NCBI GenBank assembly: GCA_018303425.1
Contig: JAGVYF010000001.1
Span: 3,539-67,538 of the forward strand
Source of the DNA: Candidatus Woesearchaeota archaeon
GTDB taxonomy: Archaea > Nanobdellota > Nanobdellia > Woesearchaeales > JAGVYF01
Direction: 5' to 3'
DNA: 64,000 nt
Shown: positions 24,158 through 57,087 of the stretch, piece after piece
How the letters are laid out: every line of letters starts with the position of its first letter
Position numbering within the stretch: position 1 is the stretch's first letter
Made by a program: the position numbers and the translations under genes
The notes under the pieces: generated by a model
What the model was told of the DNA's origin: nothing
The model's database searches: none
What the model saw: the letters and a program-made list of their open reading frames with translations, nothing else

Positions 24158-25582
24158 ATGTCAGTCGCCAGAAGAATAGCCAAAAATACCTTTTCATTGA
24201 CAGTGGGTGAATTAGTTAGTAAAGCTTTGCTTTTCTTTTTAACTGTGTTAATTGCGAGATATTTAGGCAGTGCTGGATTGGGCAATTATTCGTTCGCAAT
24301 ATCATTCACAGTTTTGTTTTATATGTTAGCTGACATGGGATTAAATAAATTAGCATTAAGAGATTTACCACGAGACAAAACTAAGCTTGGTCAATACTTT
24401 TACAATATCCTAACAATTAAATTTTTCTTATCAATCATCACATTCGTTGCAATAGTGCTTAGTATAAACTTAACCAACCAGCCATATGAAATCAAACTAA
24501 TTGTATATCTCGCAGGTATTTATATGATAATTAGTGAGTCTATAGCAACATTATTCAGGAATGTTTTCGTTTCATTTGAACAGGTAGAATATGAAGCGCT
24601 TGTCACCATAATTGAAAAAATCTTAATTTTTGCACTTGGTTACATATCACTAATCAAGTCCCAAAGTTTATTTTGGCTATTTGTAATGTTTTTAATCGCA
24701 GGAATCATAAAAGCAATAATCGGTTTCATTATTATTATTTACAAGTTTAAACCTAAGTTCTCAATTAATTTTAAAGCCTTTTTACCTTTGATTAAAAATG
24801 CATTTCCATTTAGTTTAACTTATTTATTAGCAACAGTTTACATTAAAGTTGATATTACAATGTTAACTCTCATGAGAAATAGTACTGAAGTTGGCTGGTA
24901 CACTGCAGCTGCTAACTTAATATTTGCTCTTGTTATAATTCCTGCTGTATTTATGAGAGCAGTATTTCCTAATATGACAAGATATTATAAAACTGATAAA
25001 ACGGCATTTATAAGAAGCTGTAGATTGTCATTAAAATATCTAATAATAGTAGGCATGCCTATTTGCATTGGCGGCATAATAACCTCAAAACAGTTAATCA
25101 AATTAATATACGGAGAAGGATTTTCAGAATCAACAATTGCTTTCCAAATTTTACTTGTATTTTTATTTTTATATTTCATTAAATGGGCTTTAAACATTGC
25201 ATTATATGCTGCAGATTTAGAGAAAAAAGTAGTGTGGTCATATTTAGTAGGACTTTTAGTTAATGTTGGACTTAATTTTATTTTAATCCCCATTTGGAGT
25301 TATATAGGGGCAGGAATTACAACAATTATTACTGAGATGATTGTAGTTACTGTAATCTATCACTACTTCATTACAAGAATCAGCAGATTAGTTATCCAAG
25401 ACTATTTAATTAAACCATTAATAAGCGTAGCTATTATGGGATTTGTTATATACTTCCTAGATGAAGCCCCAATTTTGTTAACAATTCTGATAGGAGGAAT
25501 TGTTTATACAATTTCAATTTTATTTTTAAAAACATTAGACAATGAAGATAAAAGATTAATCAGGCAAGTATTAAAAGTTTAA
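24158..25582 (+). CDS. Wzx-type oligosaccharide flippase (MOP superfamily)
   Basis: About 12-14 TM helices. N-terminal IAKNTFSLTVGELVSKALLFFLTVLIARYLG typical of polysaccharide biosynthesis/Wzx proteins. Confidence 0.7.
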   Translation: MSVARRIAKNTFSLTVGELVSKALLFFLTVLIARYLGSAGLGNYSFAISFTVLFYMLADMGLNKLALRDLPRDKTKLGQYFYNILTIKFFLSIITFVAIVLSINLTNQPYEIKLIVYLAGIYMIISESIATLFRNVFVSFEQVEYEALVTIIEKILIFALGYISLIKSQSLFWLFVMFLIAGIIKAIIGFIIIIYKFKPKFSINFKAFLPLIKNAFPFSLTYLLATVYIKVDITMLTLMRNSTEVGWYTAAANLIFALVIIPAVFMRAVFPNMTRYYKTDKTAFIRSCRLSLKYLIIVGMPICIGGIITSKQLIKLIYGEGFSESTIAFQILLVFLFLYFIKWALNIALYAADLEKKVVWSYLVGLLVNVGLNFILIPIWSYIGAGITTIITEMIVVTVIYHYFITRISRLVIQDYLIKPLISVAIMGFVIYFLDEAPILLTILIGGIVYTISILFLKTLDNEDKRLIRQVLKV

Positions 25583-28312
25583 AAAAGATAAAATTTGTGA
25601 AACTGCATCTTCTATCTCGATATTGGTTGTATTTATAATTAGGTTGGCATTTTGCGGTGCCTCATAAGGGTTAGACTCGCTAAAACCAATTAAATTTGTA
25701 ATCTCGCCATTCTTTGCTTTCTCATATAAACCTTTAACATCTCTTTTGGCGCATTCTTCTAAAGGGGTGCTAATAAATAATTCTATAAAATTTTCACCAA
25801 TTAAGTTTCTTGCCATTTCCCTATTCTCTTTGTAAGGGGAGATAATCGGCACAAGAATAAAATCAAATTTTGACTCTTTTTGTTTACATAATTCTGCAAT
25901 TAATTTATTATTCATATAGATGTCTTCTCTTGAAAATCCTAAACTTTTATGCAATGTATTTCGTATAACGTCCCCATCAATAATTTCGGTTTTTTTCCTT
26001 TCAGATTCCAATTTCTTTTTTAACTCTAAAGCAATGGTAGTTTTACCTGAACCGCTCAAACCTGTAAACCAAATAACTTTTGCATTCCTTTTAAATGAAA
26101 CGAAAACTTCTTTATCTTCTTTAATAGCTTCAAGTAACATATTGGATATTTCAGGCCTCATAAACCATGAGGGGGGTTGAACATAATTTATTAACATATT
26201 TCTTGCTTGAGTTCCACTAATCTGAAGCTTATCTTCTTCAGTAAATTGCATTTCTTTTTCATGAATATGTGAATCTAATGATTTTGAATAAAACACTTTG
26301 TCATATATTATTGGCTGAATGCCCAGATCTGGAAATTTATCAAATATTTCATGAGATGCACGCGGGTGATAAAAATCTTTTACGCCCGTATGATCTCTCC
26401 CTACTATAAAATGACTACATCCAAAATTTTTTCTGCAAATTGCAGTGAATATTGCTTCTCTCGGACCGGCATACCTCGAAAATGTAGAAAATGTTCCAAA
26501 TACAACTTTACCTTTAGGATAAATATTTGCCATTAGTTCATAACTTTTGATTATGAATTCTGAATTAAAATCCCCTTCTTTCTTTTGACCAATAATTGGA
26601 TGAATAAATAAACCATCGGCATGTACTTTATACATCGCATCCATTTGCAAAAATTCGTGGCTTCTATGGATAGCATTCCTTGTATGAAAACCTACAATCT
26701 TACTCCAACCTTTTTCCTCAAATATTTTTCTTGCTTGAGAAGGAGTTAGTTCATATTCTTTAAATTTAGAAGGTTTTCTTTTAATTAGGGTAATTTTGCC
26801 TCCTACTAAATATTCATCCATTTTATTTAGCATAATTACTCCTGGATGTTCTATCGAAGTAGTTCCAAACCACTTAACTGCAATTTCATTTTTATTATAA
26901 GTATAAATCTCTTCAACATCAAACAATGCCACAACTTCATCTTCAAACATTAACCCCACTTGTTGACCCTGCAAAAGTTCATTCGCAGTTTGAGAATTAA
27001 TATCAAACAAAATAGGTATGGTCCAAACGACCCCTGTTGAAAGTCTCATATTATTTAAAACAGAATCGAGCTCTTTTTGAGTCATGAATCCTTCTATGGG
27101 ACTAAAAGCACCAATTGCAATTTGTTCTGCGTCCATATATTTATTTTCGTCAATTTTAATTTTGTATAAGCTATCAATATAATTTTGAGATAAAGCTTTC
27201 TTTAACATACGATTTACTAATCTGCCTCCGTGCGCTTTAACCAAGTTTCCTGCAATGGTCTCACTAGAAATATAATTTAATTCCTCCAATCTTTTTAAAA
27301 CCGAATCGCCATTATCAATATCAATATTCGTTACTAATTCAGAATGCTCAACTAACTTAGCCAGCATTTTAACACATTCAAGAGGATATTTTCCTACTGC
27401 CGTTTCACCTGCCAGAACTAAACCTTTGGCACCATCCAAAATAGTGTTAATAACATCATTAGCTTCAGCCCTTGTTGGAGTTCTTTTTTCACTCATTGAT
27501 TCTAGAAGGTTAGTTGCAACAAAAACCGGAATTTTAAAATTTGAAGCAGTTTTAATAATAATTTTTTGAGTTAAGGGAATACGTTCAATAGAGATTTCTT
27601 TTGATAAATCTCCTCTATCGATTAAAATAAAATCCGAAAGTTCAATAATTTCATTTAAATTCGCCAAAGCTTTTTTACTTTCCACTTTAGAGATTATTTT
27701 GACTTTATTTCCTAAAACCTTTTTAACTTCTTTAACATCATCACTTGAATTCATAAAAGAAGCAGCAACATACTTAATTCCGTTTTCGATAGAATATCTT
27801 AATATTTCTTTATCTTGTTCAGAAAGCGAGGGCAATTCTCTTTTAACACCATACCTATCAGTTACTACGACACTTTTATTTCTACCCATTACCCCCCCAT
27901 TAACAACTTTTGCTCTAACTTTATCACCGATTATTTCTATTACTGAAAGAAGCAATGCATCAAAATCAATTGAAATCATATCTCCTGGCTCAAGTTGTTT
28001 TACCATTTCACTGGGCCAAAGATTAATCTCTTTATTGTTGCCTCTGATATTACAACCTGTAATTAATACATAATCACCCTCTTCAAAAGCAGCAACAGAT
28101 TTTTCTAAATCCCCTGTTCTAACCTGGGCACCCGCAGTATCAATAATCAATGGAACACCAACTTGTTCGCACAATGGAATTGCTTTTTTGACATAATCTA
28201 ATCCAACATGAGAAGTATTAATTCTTGCAAAAGTCATTCCGCTAGCTTTCATCTCCTGCAATATTTCAACAGTATCACAACTGGGGCCGAGTGTACAAAC
28301 AATGTCAACCAT
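25571..28312 (-). CDS. trifunctional fusion: pyruvate-kinase-like domain + sulfate adenylyltransferase (ATP sulfurylase) + adenylylsulfate kinase
   Basis: N-terminal DIVCTLGP...ARINTSHV...DTAGAQVRTG...IISKVESK...IDRGDLSKEI...TPTRAEANDV...AGETAVGKYP (PK barrel motifs). Middle GFHTRNAIHRSHE...GRDHTGV (ATP sulfurylase). C-terminal VIWFTGLSGSGKTT (CysC P-loop). Confidence 0.8.
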   Translation of the reverse strand: MVDIVCTLGPSCDTVEILQEMKASGMTFARINTSHVGLDYVKKAIPLCEQVGVPLIIDTAGAQVRTGDLEKSVAAFEEGDYVLITGCNIRGNNKEINLWPSEMVKQLEPGDMISIDFDALLLSVIEIIGDKVRAKVVNGGVMGRNKSVVVTDRYGVKRELPSLSEQDKEILRYSIENGIKYVAASFMNSSDDVKEVKKVLGNKVKIISKVESKKALANLNEIIELSDFILIDRGDLSKEISIERIPLTQKIIIKTASNFKIPVFVATNLLESMSEKRTPTRAEANDVINTILDGAKGLVLAGETAVGKYPLECVKMLAKLVEHSELVTNIDIDNGDSVLKRLEELNYISSETIAGNLVKAHGGRLVNRMLKKALSQNYIDSLYKIKIDENKYMDAEQIAIGAFSPIEGFMTQKELDSVLNNMRLSTGVVWTIPILFDINSQTANELLQGQQVGLMFEDEVVALFDVEEIYTYNKNEIAVKWFGTTSIEHPGVIMLNKMDEYLVGGKITLIKRKPSKFKEYELTPSQARKIFEEKGWSKIVGFHTRNAIHRSHEFLQMDAMYKVHADGLFIHPIIGQKKEGDFNSEFIIKSYELMANIYPKGKVVFGTFSTFSRYAGPREAIFTAICRKNFGCSHFIVGRDHTGVKDFYHPRASHEIFDKFPDLGIQPIIYDKVFYSKSLDSHIHEKEMQFTEEDKLQISGTQARNMLINYVQPPSWFMRPEISNMLLEAIKEDKEVFVSFKRNAKVIWFTGLSGSGKTTIALELKKKLESERKKTEIIDGDVIRNTLHKSLGFSREDIYMNNKLIAELCKQKESKFDFILVPIISPYKENREMARNLIGENFIELFISTPLEECAKRDVKGLYEKAKNGEITNLIGFSESNPYEAPQNANLIINTTNIEIEDAVSQILSFLNF

Positions 28313-42887: not shown

Positions 42888-42975
42888 ATTAGTATAATAA
42901 AAATTTTAATTTGAAAATGACTTTAAAAATATTTATAGTCTTGAATATATTTTAAAAATATTAATTAAAAAAAGA

Positions 42976-43090
42976 GTGGACAGCTTTCCGGGCTTCCCGT
43001 ACATGAGTACAGTACAACCAAGAACGGAGGCATGCTTAACTTCCGTGTTCGAAATGGGAACGGGTGAACCAGGCCCCTATGACCGTCCAA
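42976..43090 (-). rRNA. 5S ribosomal RNA (orphan copy, not linked to 16S/23S in this window)
   Basis: Minus-strand sequence GGACGGUCAUAGGGGCCUGGUUCACCCGUUCCCAUUUCGAACACGGAAGUUAAGC...GGGAAGCCCGGAAAGCUGUCC. Universal loop-C motif. Helix I pairing of ends GGACGG/CUGUCC. GC-rich island in an AT-rich region. Confidence 0.85.
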
Positions 43091-44126: not shown

Positions 44127-44303
44127 GCCAAGATTTCTGAATTGAGTTTACCATAGTGCAGTTAGCGTTAGCGAACGGAACAGAGATTGGAAACTGCATT
44201 TGGGTGAAGTGAAGCTTTCTCAATTGAAACTAACATCGGATTCTGTTAGGCGTCCCGAGCGTTAGAGAGAGCCTGCAAGGCGTGGCAAAATCTAAAAGAT
44301 TTT

Positions 44304-45048
44304 GAGTTCAGAATTCGGCGGTGGCGGGACGGCGCACTATTTGTTAGGGTTATAATCTGATTCGTATCCTGGATTTGTTTTTGGTCTATATTTGTTTGGA
44401 TATTGAATATCAGTTTTGACCGCGTGTGAAACTTTTTTGAAAAATTTGAACACCTCATAAGGATTCTCAATATGGCTAATAGTGTAGGGTTTTTGTACTG
44501 CCCCACTTCTTGTATAAGTAAAACTACCAGCGGTTGAAATAAGTATGTTACCGGATTTCCTACCAAAAAGGATATCCAAAAATCCAACATTCACTTCAGC
44601 ATTTGTTATCTGGTCAAAATCAACCATTTCAAAATCTCTGCCAATCAACCCTTTTTGAAGAAGAACTCTTTTGTTTGTAATTGTATAATAGGTATGTTTG
44701 TAAACCAAAGCTTTGTATATTGGAACTCCAAAAACAAATCCTACACCAATCTAAAAATGTGGGAGAAGAATAAAGAAATAATTTCCACTAGCTATTCCCT
44801 GAAGTACGAAAAAACCACCTATGGCCAGAAAGAATATTCCGAATATCGCACCTGCAAATCCACCTATAAAAAATGGCCCGAATTTTGGTTTTCCTTCCCA
44901 GAAAACTTTTTCATTTTGGTCTAATACTTTATCTAATTCTCTCATATTACTTAGTTTAATTATAACATATTTATAAATCAATCGTTTTTGTGCGCCGTCC
45001 GTTTGGGGTGGGTGGTCGAGGGACTGCCGAATTCTGAATTACGCCTAA
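44304..45048. repeat. imperfect 34-50 nt inverted repeats (GAGTTCAGAATTCGGC..GGACGGCGCAC / GTGCGCCGTCC..GCCGAATTCTGAAT) bracketing the bPH pseudogene
   Basis: 44304-44337 is the reverse complement of 44990-45039 apart from a 25-nt insert in the right copy. Additional pairing TTAGGCGT (44245-52) with ACGCCTAA (45040-48). The flanks are about 50% GC against about 28% background. Confidence 0.6.
44337..44981 (-). pseudogene. bacterial-PH-domain (bPH_2/YdbS-like) membrane protein interrupted by in-frame TAG
   Basis: ORFs 44751..44981 (EKVFWEGKPKF plus TM1) and 44337..44708 (YTITNKRVLLQKG...GNILISTAG PH domain) are in the SAME frame. A single amber codon at 44751-44753 inside predicted TM2 separates them. 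Confidence 0.55.
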
Positions 45049-45147
45049 CATCGCGATCGCTGTTAAACTCTCCCGATAGGGAAGCAAAAAATCGGCGTAT
45101 CAAGGTGCGAAGCACCATTAGTTAAAAGAGTTAAGAGGTCGGTGAGC

Positions 45148-45545
45148 TTATTTCTTCTTACGGAATAAGATATATGCTAAAAGGACTATGATTATAACAA
45201 TAGCAATTCCGAAAGCAATTAATAGCGTTCGGTTGTTTTGTGTGGATTCAACTGGTTTTTGTGATTTTTCTATTGTGTATGAATCAAATTTTTTGGCGAA
45301 CAATGGTTTTGAAACTTCTCCTTCAATTTTTAATCCTGTTTTAAAAACATCATCTTCATTTGCGACTTATTTTGGGAGAGATATTTTTTGTTGTAAGCCA
45401 ATAGCATAAGCTTCTTCACAAGAACTATAGTCATATTCTCTCTGCTTCACTAAGGTAACTTCTTCAATATCGATTGTTAACAAATATTCATCAGGATGAC
45501 AGATTTGTTGTATTGTGTTTTGTCATACATTATTATCGCCAGTAT
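45148..45545 (-). pseudogene. degenerate remnant of a C-terminally TM-anchored (…LLAYILFRKKK) protein with in-frame TAA and TGA
   Basis: Minus-strand translation gives ...EYLLTIDIEEVTLVKQREYDYSSCEEAYAIGLQQKISLPK*VANEDDVFKTGLKIEGEVSKPLFAKKFDSYTIEKSQKPVESTQNNRTLLIAFGIAIVIIIVLLAYILFRKKK*. A single reading frame is broken by internal stops. Confidence 0.3.
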
Positions 45546-47526: not shown

Positions 47527-47622
47527 GTGTGTGTATTAAGCATAGAACATTTGCTTTGCAGAAAGTAAATATTATTATTAATAATTATTATTTATATACT
47601 TATTAAGTATTGAAACGTTTAT

Positions 47623-47824
47623 GGGCCCATAGCATAGCCTGGATATGCTGTATGCAACAGAAAGTGCGGCCGGCTTCGGACTAGCTTTTTAGAAAACGTT
47701 TGGGAAAATAAGTGTTTTTTGTTATATTCCAAAGCACACTAAAAAAAAGCAAGGAAGCTACCGGCATACCGGGGTTCGAATAAATTAAGCAAATTGCTTT
47801 ATATCGGAAATCCTCGTGGGCTCA
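47623..47824 (+). tRNA. tRNA with three introns (tentatively tRNA-Arg, anticodon UCG); mature length 73 nt
   Basis: Exon 47623-47649 (GGGCCCA acceptor, U8, D-arm GCAU/AGCCUGGAU/AUGC) | intron 47650-47668. Exon 47669-47679 (GCCGG CUUCGG: U33, anticodon UCG, G37) | intron 47680-47759. Exon 47760-47780 (A38, CCGGC, var AUAC, CGGGG, UUCGAA) | intron 47781-47810. Exon 47811-47824 (U60, CCUCG, UGGGCUC, A73). All seven acceptor pairs, G53-C61 and the T-loop UUCGAAU are satisfied. Confidence 0.6.
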
Positions 47825-47867
47825 TATTTTAATTTTGATATAAGGGACTAATATGCCGGTTATTTAT

Positions 47868-48266
47868 TTAATGTCTAATTTCTACCCACTTAACTTTTTT
47901 ATCTTCAACCAGATTTTTAATTTCACGCTGTTTTATATTTAATCCTGCACTACCTGTCTTAATTTCAATAAATGAGATATTATCCGAACCGAATACAATG
48001 CCATCTATTGGTTGACCTATAAATTTAAAATCATTTTTCGAAAATGGAAAATCTTTAGCAAATGGAACAAATTGCTCCCATGTTTGTCCATGTTTAACAT
48101 TCTCAGAACGTTTCACTTTAAGCAGTTGATCATATTTATTCAATAGGGTTTTGTATCTATGATAAAAAACCAAATAAGAAATAATTAAACTAAATACTAT
48201 TATAATAAATACAATTAAACTAAATATGAATATAATGTTTTTATTTAATATAACATCTGCAGGCAT
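47868..48266 (-). CDS. membrane-anchored PD-(D/E)xK nuclease-fold protein (NERD-like)
   Basis: N-terminal TM helix then ...QPIDGIVFGSDNISFIEIKTGSAGLN (D...E-x-K arrangement). 132 aa. Confidence 0.4.
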   Translation of the reverse strand: MPADVILNKNIIFIFSLIVFIIIVFSLIISYLVFYHRYKTLLNKYDQLLKVKRSENVKHGQTWEQFVPFAKDFPFSKNDFKFIGQPIDGIVFGSDNISFIEIKTGSAGLNIKQREIKNLVEDKKVKWVEIRH

Positions 48267-52902: not shown

Positions 52903-54558
52903 TTATTGTAATAAAGAAAATAGGTCAGTTAAGTTTAGCTCGAAACCGGCAGCAGGAGTAAGAAGTTCCCAATTACTAAGAACTTGCGGGGAGAATTCCC
53001 CTATGTGTCCAATGTTTTTGCCTTTATACGAGATTTTTGCAATTCTCCCTTCAATAAATGAACTGTGTTCAATTTCATGCATTTCATAGTTTTCTGCGCC
53101 AAGGTTTTTCATTAGGCTGTCAAAGATTTGTTTACTTTCTGTAAAATCGGCGTTATTATGCGCAGTAATTACTGCAATTTTTTCATAATCTTTTGCTTCG
53201 GTTTTATCATTGATGCTGACCAGCCCGTGTTCGAATATTTTTTGTGGGTATTCGTTATGCTTGTTTTTTGATAAAGTTTCAAGCAATATAGGGGATAACC
53301 AGTTTCTTACCACTGAAAATGATTCAGACATATACTCTTTTATCTCTAACAGTGAAAAAGGTTCAATGTTCATTTTAGTAAATAATGTATTTTTATTTGA
53401 TAGCATTGCATTTAGGACCTCTTGATATCCGAAACCAATGAGTATTTCCCTGGCGCTGTCGCAAAAATTTATCAGTGGGGAAGTTTCCCCTATCGTGTTA
53501 CTTTTAAGTTTTTGCACAGGAATATTCTTATAACCGTAGGTAATTCCGATGTCTTCAATAATGTCTACCATGTGCAATAAATCTTGCCTATAAATTGGGG
53601 CGGTTACAGTTCCATTGTGATAACCATATCTTGCTTTTTCAAGTAATTTTTGCAGTTCGTTTTCTTTTAATTCCAAACCTAATAAATGTTTAACATCATC
53701 AGGTTTAATTTTAAATTTTTCATTGAATTTGTATGGGCATTTTACAGTCCTATCAGTATATTCGATGCTTGTTTCATAAATTTCAAAACCTCTATCATAA
53801 AATGCTTGGGCCATAATGTTTATCGCGAGATTTACTGAATTAAAATCTGTACCGGTTGCTTCTATGAACAGATTAGAATCACCTACCTCAACTTTTCCAG
53901 AATAGTTTGAATTAATAATTGGAGGGAAACTTAATATTTCATGTTCATTATCAACTAATATCGGGTATTCTTTAAAATCTTTTAATAAGGGTGAATATTT
54001 TTGGCCTGCAGGGTGCATTTCGAGGATCTCACCCGGGGTCATTTTTCTATTAAAATTTAATGGTTCAAATTCCATGTCTTCAGGGCCAGTAGTCTTATAA
54101 AATAGGGGGAATTTAATTTTCTCAAGCGAATATATGCCTATTGCAACTTTTTGCCTTTTTCTTCCATATGATTCACAAAATTTTTCCTGCAATTGGATAA
54201 TTTGTTTAAGTAAATAATCCGAAATACCTTTTCCTTTAACAGCAATTGCCCCAATGTAAGGTCTAACCTGCTTAACTGAATTATTTACTCCAATTTTCAT
54301 GCCTGATTTTTTAATTTCGAGTATTGGTAAACCTTTTTCTTTTCCTATAATTCCCTTTATAAGTCTAGCTAATCCTTCAACTGACCACAGGTATGGGAGG
54401 TTTGTGTCATCATAGTTTACATGCACTTCATCTGAATCTTTATCATAATCTTTTAATTCGCCTTTTCCATATTCTACTAATTCATCCAGCTCGGAGATTG
54501 TGAGCTCTTTTCCGACTAAGCTGTTCAAGTCCTGCAATGAAAATTTTATTGTTGGCAT
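52903..54558 (-). CDS. pheT: phenylalanine--tRNA ligase beta subunit (archaeal type)
   Basis: 551 aa with B3/B4 and B5 domains. Immediately downstream of and overlapping pheS. Archaeal-length beta subunit. Confidence 0.85.
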   Translation of the reverse strand: MPTIKFSLQDLNSLVGKELTISELDELVEYGKGELKDYDKDSDEVHVNYDDTNLPYLWSVEGLARLIKGIIGKEKGLPILEIKKSGMKIGVNNSVKQVRPYIGAIAVKGKGISDYLLKQIIQLQEKFCESYGRKRQKVAIGIYSLEKIKFPLFYKTTGPEDMEFEPLNFNRKMTPGEILEMHPAGQKYSPLLKDFKEYPILVDNEHEILSFPPIINSNYSGKVEVGDSNLFIEATGTDFNSVNLAINIMAQAFYDRGFEIYETSIEYTDRTVKCPYKFNEKFKIKPDDVKHLLGLELKENELQKLLEKARYGYHNGTVTAPIYRQDLLHMVDIIEDIGITYGYKNIPVQKLKSNTIGETSPLINFCDSAREILIGFGYQEVLNAMLSNKNTLFTKMNIEPFSLLEIKEYMSESFSVVRNWLSPILLETLSKNKHNEYPQKIFEHGLVSINDKTEAKDYEKIAVITAHNNADFTESKQIFDSLMKNLGAENYEMHEIEHSSFIEGRIAKISYKGKNIGHIGEFSPQVLSNWELLTPAAGFELNLTDLFSLLQ

Positions 54559-56078
54559 TTTTTGTTCCTCAGCAGATTTAAATCTTGTGTATATAATTCT
54601 CTGATATCGTCAATTTTCATGTTGAACATTCCCACTCTGTCAATACCAATACCCCACGCAATTACAGGTACATCTATGCCTAATGGGCGTATTACTTCAG
54701 GTCTAAAGATTCCTGAACCCCCTAATTCAATCCATCCCATTTCGGGGTGTTTTGCAAATAACTCTGCGCTGGGTTCAGTAAATGGAAAGTATGCAGGTTT
54801 AATTTTAATTTGTTCAGTTTGCGCAAATTCTTCAGCAAACATTTTTAATAATCCTTTCAAACTTTGGAAATTTAAGCCTTCATCAGCTACAATCCCTTCT
54901 GTTTGGTAAAAATCAGGTAAATGGGTAGCATCAATTACATCGTACCTGAAACATTTTGCAATTGCAAAATATTTACCCGGAACTTTGAAATCTTTTGAAG
55001 CCAGCATTCTTGCAGATGCTGCCGTACCTTGTGTTCTTAACAGTGTTCTTTTTGTTCTTTCTGCATCAAATTTGTACTGCCAACCTTTTGAGCTTGTATT
55101 GAAACCGTCTTCATGCGCAGATTTAACATTTTTAATGAGTTGCGTGTCAATCTGTTGTATTGCCGGTTCTTTTATATAGTAAGCTTCGTGAATATCTCTG
55201 GCGCTATGAAATTGCGGCATAAAGAGGGCGTCCATATCCCAAAAATCTGATTCCACAATAGGCCCAAACATTTCAGTGAAGCCCATTGCAAGGAATTTTT
55301 GTCTTACATTATCAAGGAATCTGCGGTAATGTTGTCTTTTTCCAGGATAAATTTTAGGTACATTCAATGATATGTCATATCTTCTGAATTTTTTATTTTT
55401 CCATTCATCAGTTTTTAGCATATTTGGTGTAAGCTTATCAAGAAAATTATCTGTTAATTTTATATATTGCAGTTCATGACCTAACTGCGTAAGTTCAACA
55501 ACTCTATCTTTGATAAGATTAATTTTAATAATTTCTTTTCTTTGAGATAAAGCATGCATTAAGACTCTGTCTTCGTGTTTAATAATTTCTTGATTTTCTT
55601 TTCCTTCAACTCCAATAAAATTTAAGAATTTGTGTTCCGGAAATATTTTTGGTTCTGTTGTTGTTGCGCTTAGTAAAATCTTATCTTTGCCTTGTTTGTT
55701 TAAATTTATCAGGCTTTGTTTTTTTAATGTGCCAATTGCAATTTGGATTTCTTGAGATGATAGACCTGTATATTCTTGGAGTTTATGCATTTCAACTTCT
55801 TTGCCTGCTTTTTGCAATGTTTCAAGCAGTTGTTGTTCAGGCAATCCTTTTAGGGCGTATTCTTTTCCGTTTTTATCAAGTTCTATGCGTTTTTTAAGGT
55901 CTTCATGCATTATAATTAATCCTTTGTTTTGGAGCCATTGTAATGCTCTCATAGCGCCAGCTTCCGGTAATTCTGATTTTTTTACTAATTCGGAAAGTCG
56001 GTTACATATTTTTAGCAACGGAAATATTTTTCTTTCTAATGGGTGCAAAGATTCTGCTAATTTTCTTATATCATCCAT
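54546..56078 (-). CDS. pheS: phenylalanine--tRNA ligase alpha subunit (archaeal type)
   Basis: Class II motifs ...FRYDVIDATHLPDFYQTEG...GSGIFRPEV...AWGIGIDR. 510 aa with N-terminal DNA-binding-like extension typical of archaeal and eukaryotic PheS. Confidence 0.85.
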   Translation of the reverse strand: MDDIRKLAESLHPLERKIFPLLKICNRLSELVKKSELPEAGAMRALQWLQNKGLIIMHEDLKKRIELDKNGKEYALKGLPEQQLLETLQKAGKEVEMHKLQEYTGLSSQEIQIAIGTLKKQSLINLNKQGKDKILLSATTTEPKIFPEHKFLNFIGVEGKENQEIIKHEDRVLMHALSQRKEIIKINLIKDRVVELTQLGHELQYIKLTDNFLDKLTPNMLKTDEWKNKKFRRYDISLNVPKIYPGKRQHYRRFLDNVRQKFLAMGFTEMFGPIVESDFWDMDALFMPQFHSARDIHEAYYIKEPAIQQIDTQLIKNVKSAHEDGFNTSSKGWQYKFDAERTKRTLLRTQGTAASARMLASKDFKVPGKYFAIAKCFRYDVIDATHLPDFYQTEGIVADEGLNFQSLKGLLKMFAEEFAQTEQIKIKPAYFPFTEPSAELFAKHPEMGWIELGGSGIFRPEVIRPLGIDVPVIAWGIGIDRVGMFNMKIDDIRELYTQDLNLLRNKKCQQ

Positions 56079-56673: not shown

Positions 56674-57087
56674 ATGAAATACAAATATATAGAAGGAGAA
56701 ATAACTTCTGATGTCATGTTTGAAGCTTATGGAAAAACACCTCAAGAGGTATTTGAAAATGCCGCTGAAGCAATGTTTGAGACTATTTGTATTAAAATTA
56801 AAGTAAAACCGAAGAGATCTGTTAAAGTTCATGTTGAAGGTAAAAATTTAAAAGATTTATTTTATAATTGGTTGCAGGAATTAATTGGTCTGATTGATAT
56901 TGAAGAAATGTTTTTTTCCAAGTTTAATATTACTAAAATTTCTGAAACTTCACTAGACGCAGAAATTTATGGTGAAGATATAACTCCCAATAAAGGAGAA
57001 ACGGTTGTTAAGGCTGTTACATACTTCGGGTTTGATTTAAGGAAGGAGAAAGGTAAGTATATTGGAACTGCTACACTGGATATTTAG
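56674..57087 (+). CDS. archease (RtcB tRNA-ligase cofactor)
   Basis: YKYIEGEITSDVMFEAYGKTPQEVFENAAEAMFE matches the archease N-terminal signature (…HTADIKFRAYG.TLEELFENAA.AM…). 137 aa. Confidence 0.8.
   Translation: MKYKYIEGEITSDVMFEAYGKTPQEVFENAAEAMFETICIKIKVKPKRSVKVHVEGKNLKDLFYNWLQELIGLIDIEEMFFSKFNITKISETSLDAEIYGEDITPNKGETVVKAVTYFGFDLRKEKGKYIGTATLDI

Follow-up and report, generated by a model that had tools for sequence, protein, structure and literature searches.

A probable functional tRNA-Arg(UCG) gene of Candidatus Woesearchaeota with three BHB introns at tRNA positions 20a/21, 37/38, and 59/60

On the forward strand of the window, by which we mean the whole 64-kb stretch of DNA analyzed here, a tRNA-Arg(UCG) gene of 202 nt lies at 47623..47824; it opens with GGGCCCAUAGCAUAGCCUGGAU, closes with UCCUCGUGGGCUCA, does not encode CCA, and consists of four exons and three introns. 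Its two ends form the acceptor stem, since GGGCCCA (47623-47629) pairs with UGGGCUC-A (47817-47824) over seven positions, one of them G-U, which bears out a pairing across about 200 nt that had been claimed in an earlier note on this DNA. About 25 nt upstream of tRNA position 1 is a TATA-box-like element, TTTATATA (47591..47598, +), a putative archaeal promoter, and the same box occurs at a similar distance upstream of an intronless ortholog (L001, described below). The gene is followed by a T-rich trailer read from the sequence, UAUUUUAAUUUU (47825..47836, +), which is likely a transcription stop. The downstream neighbor (47868-48266, -) encodes a Holliday-junction-resolvase-like (Hjc-like) protein. 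The host is a DPANN archaeon (Candidatus Woesearchaeota) and not one of the Thermoproteales-type groups.

All parts of the gene are read on the + strand. Exon 1 (47623..47644) covers tRNA positions 1-20a, with the acceptor 5' strand, U8, A9, the D-stem 5' strand GCAU, and the D-loop AGCCUGGAU, and is identical to the corresponding part of L001. Intron 1 (47645..47662) is 18 nt long, AUGCUGUAUGCAACAGAA, and interrupts the D-loop at 20a/21 with a relaxed bulge-helix-bulge (BHB) motif. Exon 2 (47663..47679; positions 21-37) supplies A21, the D-stem 3' strand GUGC, G26, the anticodon stem 5' strand GCCGG, C32, U33, the anticodon U34 C35 G36, and G37, and is followed by the 80-nt intron 2 (47680..47759), which has a strict hBHBh' motif at the canonical 37/38 position. 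Exon 3 (47760..47780; positions 38-59) contains A38, the anticodon stem 3' strand, a 4-nt variable loop AUAC, the T-stem 5' strand CGGGG, and the T-loop UUCGAA, and is likewise identical to L001. The 30-nt intron 3 (47781..47810) lies in the T-loop at 59/60, again with a strict hBHBh' motif, and exon 4 (47811..47824; positions 60-73) closes the gene with U60, the T-stem 3' strand CCUCG, the acceptor 3' strand UGGGCUC, and the discriminator A73. Joined, the exons give a tRNA-Arg(UCG) of 74 nt, GGGCCCAUAGCAUAGCCUGGAUAGUGCGGCCGGCUUCGGACCGGCAUACCGGGGUUCGAAUCCUCGUGGGCUCA, instead of the 73 nt counted earlier, with A21, a GCAU/GUGC D-stem, and G26; its G+C content is 63%, against 30% for the window. 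Having BHB introns at 20a/21, 37/38, and 59/60 in one colinear gene, it is a multiple-intron tRNA gene, a class defined by at least two. Group I introns, which are self-splicing ribozyme folds typically of more than 200 nt, were considered and rejected: the inserts measure 18, 80, and 30 nt, and no Rfam intron family matched at E <= 10 in the gene or E <= 5 in the window.

Several other features of the window deserve mention. Positions 1-42000 hold about 40 kb of mostly glycosyltransferases, sugar-modifying enzymes, methyltransferases, and seven radical-SAM proteins, three of the seven with a B12-binding domain, and the region looks like a large cell-surface glycan island. In a 913-aa ORF at 25571-28312 (-), a pyruvate-kinase barrel domain is fused to PUA_2, ATP-sulfurylase, and APS kinase; next to it are phosphodiesterase and sulfatase-family genes and a large cluster of glycosyltransferases, a setting that suggests that PAPS is supplied for sulfated glycans. 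The sole Rfam match across the 64-kb window is a 5S rRNA gene (42975-43090, -; 64.9 bits), which is solitary and unlinked to 16S or 23S. Within 44244-45050 there are three nested, perfect, GC-rich long-range complementary blocks in this 30% G+C genome (44244-53 with 45041-50, 44309-19 with 45026-36, and 44327-37 with 44990-45000), flanking about 650 nt that carry a bPH_2-domain ORF (44337-44708, -) and a 76-aa membrane ORF (44751-44981, -). Rfam matched no family on the GC-rich arms (44130-44345 and 44985-45200), and the similarity of a near-identical strain contig (L246) to the window ends at window position 45046, at the outer block. Either an RNA structure resembling a processing stem or the termini of an inserted or variable cassette could account for the segment. 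In the syntenic contig L001, the interval from the UDP-glucose dehydrogenase gene to the nucleotidyltransferase gene lacks the 5S rRNA gene, the Exo_endo_phos gene, and the GC-rich structure.

ARAGORN, run with and without its intron options, reported no tRNA in the window or in the unspliced gene, and Rfam at gathering and E-value thresholds (E <= 10 for the gene; E <= 5 for the window) gave no tRNA match. The earlier note had proposed a single tRNA gene with introns at 26/27, 37/38, and 59/60, and its basic observation is real, because removal of the three segments that it named leaves a 73-nt sequence that ARAGORN calls tRNA-Arg(tcg). Two of those introns had been placed to the base; the remaining one was misplaced, so that of the two non-canonical positions 59/60 stands, whereas 26/27 is replaced by 20a/21.

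At each proposed junction, all registers shifted by -3 to +3 were scored for BHB geometry. This was defined as a central helix H of 4 bp flanked by 3-nt bulges, each cut behind its second nucleotide, and by the outer helices h and h', with the same rule for both strands of the motif. At the 37/38 junctions (47679|47680 and 47759|47760), a unique register gave H 4/4, two 3-nt bulges, and a 5-bp h. Here CUUC at 47674-47677 (positions 32-35) pairs with GAAG at 47754-47757, leaving the bulges GG|A (47678-47680) and CU|A (47758-47760), as first described; h is the 5-bp anticodon stem, and h' extends for about 9 bp with one A.A mismatch. The 59/60 junctions (47780|47781 and 47810|47811) also have a unique register with H 4/4, two 3-nt bulges, and a 5-bp h: UUCG at 47775-47778 (positions 54-57) pairs with CGGA at 47805-47808, including one G-U, both bulges read AA|U (47779-47781 and 47809-47811), the 5-bp T-stem serves as h, and the h' hairpin includes AAGC/GCUU. 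Folding of the junctions thus returns strict hBHBh' motifs (H 4/4, h 5/5, h' present, one register) at 37/38 and 59/60 and none at 26/27. Folding the 202 nt without constraints gave an MFE structure (-58.1 kcal/mol, z = -2.2) that contains both strict motifs.

The position of intron 1 was settled by comparison with a relative. Homologs of the Hjc-like protein led to syntenic contigs, among them L001, in which the neighbor proteins are 60-87% identical to those of the window and the order eS17e, Alba, tRNA, Hjc-like gene is kept. L001 carries an intronless tRNA-Arg(UCG), GGGCCCATAGCATAGCCTGGATAGTGCAGCCGGCTTCGGACCGGCATACCGGGGTTCGAATCCTCGTGGGCTCA, at the syntenic position between the Hjc-like gene and Alba-eS17e, and the corrected spliced product of the window gene is identical to it at 73 of 74 positions, the sole difference being position 26 (G, versus A in L001). 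The D-stem 3' strand of L001 is GTGC, not ATGC, and in a MAFFT alignment of the window with L001 the first gap falls between GGAT and AGTGC. From this alignment and the GTGC D-stem it follows that intron 1 comprises 47645-47662, between U20a and A21. By sequence alone, 20a/21 and 21/22 are equivalent, because the A|A at the cut can slide; the 5' cleavage site at the end of exon 1 is set by BHB geometry.

In the motif of intron 1, C47639-G47660, U47640-A47659, and G47641-C47658 are paired in the central helix, G47642.A47657 is mismatched, and the bulges are 47643-47645 (AU|A) and 47661-47663 (AA|A). The h' helix pairs UGC (47646-47648) with GCA (47654-47656), and h has 2 bp only (G47637-U47665 and C47638-G47664). 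With H 3/4 and a 2-bp h this falls short of a strict hBHBh' motif, but it has both bulges, with 3 bp each in H and h', at a site conserved in relatives, as in a relaxed BHB. We regard intron 1 as a relaxed substrate because of the G.A mismatch beside the 5' bulge and because its 2-bp h competes with the D-stem. When specified pairs were evaluated, the three BHBs could coexist with the acceptor stem. In the region of intron 1 the MFE fold favors an extended GCAU/AUGC helix over the D-loop BHB; with the other two BHBs fixed, the D-loop model reaches -41.8 kcal/mol versus -38.8 kcal/mol for an intron at 26/27 and is thus about 3 kcal/mol more stable. A 19/20 intron, at a site used in five orthologs, was rejected for the window gene by inspection, as it would alter the mature D-loop and offers no central helix.

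Scans of genomes and metagenomes with a pattern ending in the D-stem of the earlier note (…GGNNATGC) found no loci, because that pattern encoded the erroneous 26/27 D-stem. A relaxed pattern that stopped at GGAYA matched 120 loci in genomes and 119 in metagenomes; the titles of most genome loci matched are those of Candidatus Woesearchaeota or Nanoarchaeota, and the eS17e-Alba-tRNA-Arg synteny is conserved in many of the fetched loci. Each locus was spliced-aligned to the L001 tRNA and its BHBs were scored, and 156 unique well-aligned orthologs were kept. Since the spliced aligner over-splits divergent 3' ends, candidates at reference positions 61-71, which had no BHB support, were excluded. 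Among the 156, BHB-supported introns were found at 19/20 in 5 unique orthologs, at 20a/21 in 30, at 53/54 in 3, and at 59/60 in 11, while 11 of 12 candidates at 35/36 and 41 of 43 at 37/38 were BHB-supported. Orthologs at this locus carry zero to three introns, at recurring sites. The combination of 20a/21, 37/38, and 59/60 passed the BHB filter in the window gene and in L229; L015 has candidate introns at the same three positions, with H just 2/4 at 37/38 and a 59/60 motif that, owing to a slip in the alignment, was recovered by inspection only. The more distant syntenic relative L003 has a 40-nt D-loop intron at the same site as the window gene, with a perfect CUGG/CCAG helix and no other introns.

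The motifs are maintained across these orthologs. For each ortholog the junction was taken as the best-pairing register among those yielding the same mature sequence, so that the following figures lean slightly upward: at 59/60, 98% of cells are paired versus 35-71% with the partner slid, and for the D-loop motif (n=30) 94% are paired in register versus 18-40% slid. Position 57 covaries with the opposing intron base at 59/60 (G-C in 6, A-U in 5). Changes in the D-loop motif are one-sided only, because its exon side is invariant.

The ortholog set contained further observations that stand apart from the window gene. The candidate introns at 35/36 lie inside the anticodon, between C35 and G36 (e.g., L012, L050, L082, L118, and L241). 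The central helix is 4/4 in all 12 candidates (GGCU with RGCY), and in 11 of them the outer helix also reaches 2 bp or more. Another 41 orthologs are interrupted at a different site, the canonical 37/38. In L003 (JGI 3300063128 contig Ga0598294_0000250, 5370-5960), the surroundings of the tRNA-Arg(UCG) gene include an extra copy of the first 13 nt of the tRNA together with the same upstream 20 nt. There, the unit GGTGACC + ATCCTCACAGGCTCA + TTTTT is also repeated in tandem in three additional copies, of which one is degenerate (ACCATCACAGGCTCA). The 15-nt repeated unit corresponds to A59 plus the 3' piece beginning at the 59/60 intron site, and these extra pieces may have been left behind by repeated integration or recombination at the tRNA, or they may represent spare 3' exons. 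Another contig, L002 (ENA ERZ28563591 scaffold_271622, 1544-1629), carries a 99% identical Hjc-like gene, diverges inside the 3' end of that gene, and does not extend into the tRNA side; a strain variant and a short chimeric contig are the two possible explanations.

The exact 202-nt gene is present in 6 of 6 independent assemblies, from different samples, that reach the locus; across about 13 kb, their identity to the window is 99.9-100%. The recurrence in six independent assemblies means that the gene is not an assembly artefact. The PheRS alpha encoded in the window (54546-56078, -) shows 100% identity to an NCBI protein that carries the label Candidatus Woesearchaeota archaeon, and contigs encoding it likewise come from several samples. 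Our reading is that the locus is a functional tRNA-Arg(UCG) gene with three BHB introns, of 18 nt at 20a/21, 80 nt at 37/38, and 30 nt at 59/60, whose splicing we infer from the sequence, and to this reading we assign a probability of about 0.88.

A gene in decay is an alternative. If the gene were non-functional, one or more inserts, especially that in the D-loop, would be retained and another gene would supply tRNA-Arg(UCG); the imperfect central helix and short h of intron 1 speak for this. However, the exons are conserved while the introns are unconstrained in sequence, G26 in place of A26 being the one exon difference from the intronless ortholog; none of the three BHB geometries has been lost, the promoter-like box persists, and the gene is fixed and identical across six samples. 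The imperfection itself is shared within the group, because L032 has the same ACAG variant of the D-loop motif and 3/4 central helices occur in about a third of the orthologs' D-loop introns, so the relaxed motif is tolerated across the clade. We therefore consider decay quite unlikely.

The placement of the first intron in the earlier note (19 nt, 47650-47668, at 26/27) differs from ours in that it gives a GCAU/AUGC D-stem, U26, and a 73-nt tRNA, with the mature D-arm GGAUAGUGCG and the product …GGAUAUGCUGCCGG…. This product is accepted by ARAGORN, and GCAU/AUGC makes four Watson-Crick pairs that form a helix in the MFE fold of the precursor. Yet at 26/27, 25/26, and 27/28 no BHB could be formed in any register: h and h' are poor, and H never exceeds 3/4, including two wobbles. 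In the 107 orthologs whose D region has no intron, the D-stem 3' strand reads GTGC 100 times, GTGT 4 times, TTGC 3 times, and ATGC never, and position 26 is G in 100 of 137 orthologs; these two counts rule out 26/27 for practical purposes. The same model gives U21, where every intronless ortholog has A21, and it needs several D-arm differences from the intronless L001 tRNA, not one. The AUGC is already explained as a bulge A followed by the h' stem UGC, and A-UGC recurs in the homologous D-loop introns of L012, L030, and L003. This was the source of the slip: the intron's own 5' A-UGC was read as the D-stem 3' strand, and the true strand GUGC with G26 (47664-47668, just before GCCGG) was put inside the intron. 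An intron at 26/27 is accordingly highly improbable.

Chance resemblance or an assembly chimera, to which the failure of standard tRNA finders to report anything at the locus might point, has a negligible probability in view of the 73/74 identity to a syntenic intronless tRNA-Arg(UCG), which excludes chance, the exact recurrence in six assemblies, an exon product of 63% G+C inside a 30% G+C window, and the use of the same three intron sites in other orthologs, e.g., L229.

For the functional, three-intron gene, processing can be outlined as follows. Transcription from a TATA-type promoter would yield a precursor made up of a leader, the roughly 202 nt of the gene, and a trailer, in which every exon-intron boundary pair is predicted to fold into a BHB motif, all three being foldable at once. 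EndA would cut after the second nucleotide of each 3-nt bulge (47644|47645, 47662|47663, 47679|47680, 47759|47760, 47780|47781, and 47810|47811), and RtcB with archease would ligate the four exons. Because CCA is not encoded, it must be added post-transcriptionally, presumably after ligation. Across its junctions, the 74-nt product would read …CCUGGAU|AGUGCGGCCGGCUUCGG|ACCGG…UUCGAA|UCCUCG…. The gene for archease, the RtcB ligase cofactor, is indeed found where it had been annotated (56674..57087, +; Pfam PF01951, E = 1.4e-34), 8.9 kb downstream, as context and not as part of the tRNA gene. Neither EndA (tRNA_int_endo family) nor RtcB was found among 56 ORFs scanned in the 64-kb window.

Split, tri-split, and permuted tRNA genes occur in Nanoarchaeum equitans, Caldivirga maquilingensis, and Thermofilum pendens, and the window gene would share with them the BHB-dependent joining of tRNA pieces. 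It differs in that its four exons are colinear on one strand within 202 nt; because of this, neither trans-splicing nor permutation is involved, and a split or permuted gene was rejected.

Although rare, tRNA genes carrying as many as three introns have been described in archaea, chiefly in Thermoproteales (PMC4033280, PMC8450103), and multiple-intron genes of Pyrobaculum, Thermofilum, and Caldivirga are described in the work of Sugahara et al. 2007/2008, at least as these two papers cite it (PMC4033280, PMC8450103). The window gene resembles them in that one colinear gene is interrupted by several BHB introns, some at the canonical position and others not, and in that standard finders miss it; the reported maximum there, three introns, is also the number found here. 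Their hosts, however, are hyperthermophilic crenarchaea, whereas the present host is an AT-rich DPANN Woesearchaeota. The Thermoproteales enzyme is (alpha-beta)2 with the L1/CSL loop; by analogy the host enzyme would differ, the DPANN literature suggesting alpha4 with an L3 loop. Intron transposition has been described in Thermoproteales, whereas a search for intron sequence relatives in all fetched loci and the window returned only chance-level short matches. We saw no evidence of Thermoproteales-style transposition, because the window introns have no detectable sequence relatives, and form no sequence families, among the fetched loci.

Each of the two non-canonical positions has a counterpart in a gene described before. 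The pre-tRNA-Glu(UUC) of M. kandleri has a D-loop 20b/21 HBh' intron in addition to a canonical intron, and the former is cut in vitro by the broad-specificity (alpha-beta)2 EndA of A. pernix (PMC5829648). As in the window gene, a relaxed BHB just before A21 is found together with a 37/38 intron, but the window gene adds the 59/60 intron, and its D-loop motif formally has both 3-nt bulges and one H mismatch where that of M. kandleri is HBh'. ARMAN-2 (Ca. Micrarchaeum) pre-tRNA-Cys(GCA), also from a DPANN lineage, has a T-loop intron at 59/60 with a relaxed hBH motif, and this organism has an epsilon2 endonuclease, a type reported only in the Micrarchaeum lineage (PMC3239211, PMC5829648). In contrast to the ARMAN-2 motif, the 59/60 motif of the window gene is a strict hBHBh' stacked on the T-stem.

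Alpha4 EndAs with an L3 loop have been reported in several DPANN lineages, where they are associated with increased tRNA gene disruption, in an analysis that included a Woesearchaeota genome and in which incomplete DPANN tRNA sets point to undetected disrupted genes (PMC5829648). By analogy with that work, it is plausible that the host needs a relaxed-specificity endonuclease (PMC5829648). The window gene fits the known picture of DPANN tRNA disruption and represents no new kind of mechanism.

The ortholog survey leads us to a broader proposal, which we put forward tentatively and rate at less than even odds. It holds that the tRNA-Arg(UCG) locus of Woesearchaeota and Nanoarchaeota undergoes rapid turnover in the presence and absence of BHB introns at recurring sites, together with corollaries on the alpha4/L3 enzyme and on an intron hotspot. 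The sites in question are 19/20, 20a/21, 35/36 (inside the anticodon), 37/38, 53/54, and 59/60, and the difference in intron number is zero, one, or three between relatives whose neighbor proteins are 60-87% identical. Should the clade's EndA be alpha4 with only the L3 loop, the locus would be natural evidence of a homotetramer handling relaxed D-loop motifs, and the clade would be a second, independent hotspot of tRNA intron gain beside Thermoproteales.

The gene has three introns, the reported maximum for any archaeal tRNA gene, here in DPANN rather than in Thermoproteales. With genes missed in this way, a Woesearchaeota MAG would seem to have no tRNA that reads CGN arginine codons, and the list of incomplete DPANN tRNA sets already noted would lengthen (PMC5829648). 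The 156 unique orthologs amount to a clean natural experiment in how introns are gained and lost at fixed sites of one gene, and they also indicate the extent of BHB relaxation that the endonuclease of this clade tolerates.
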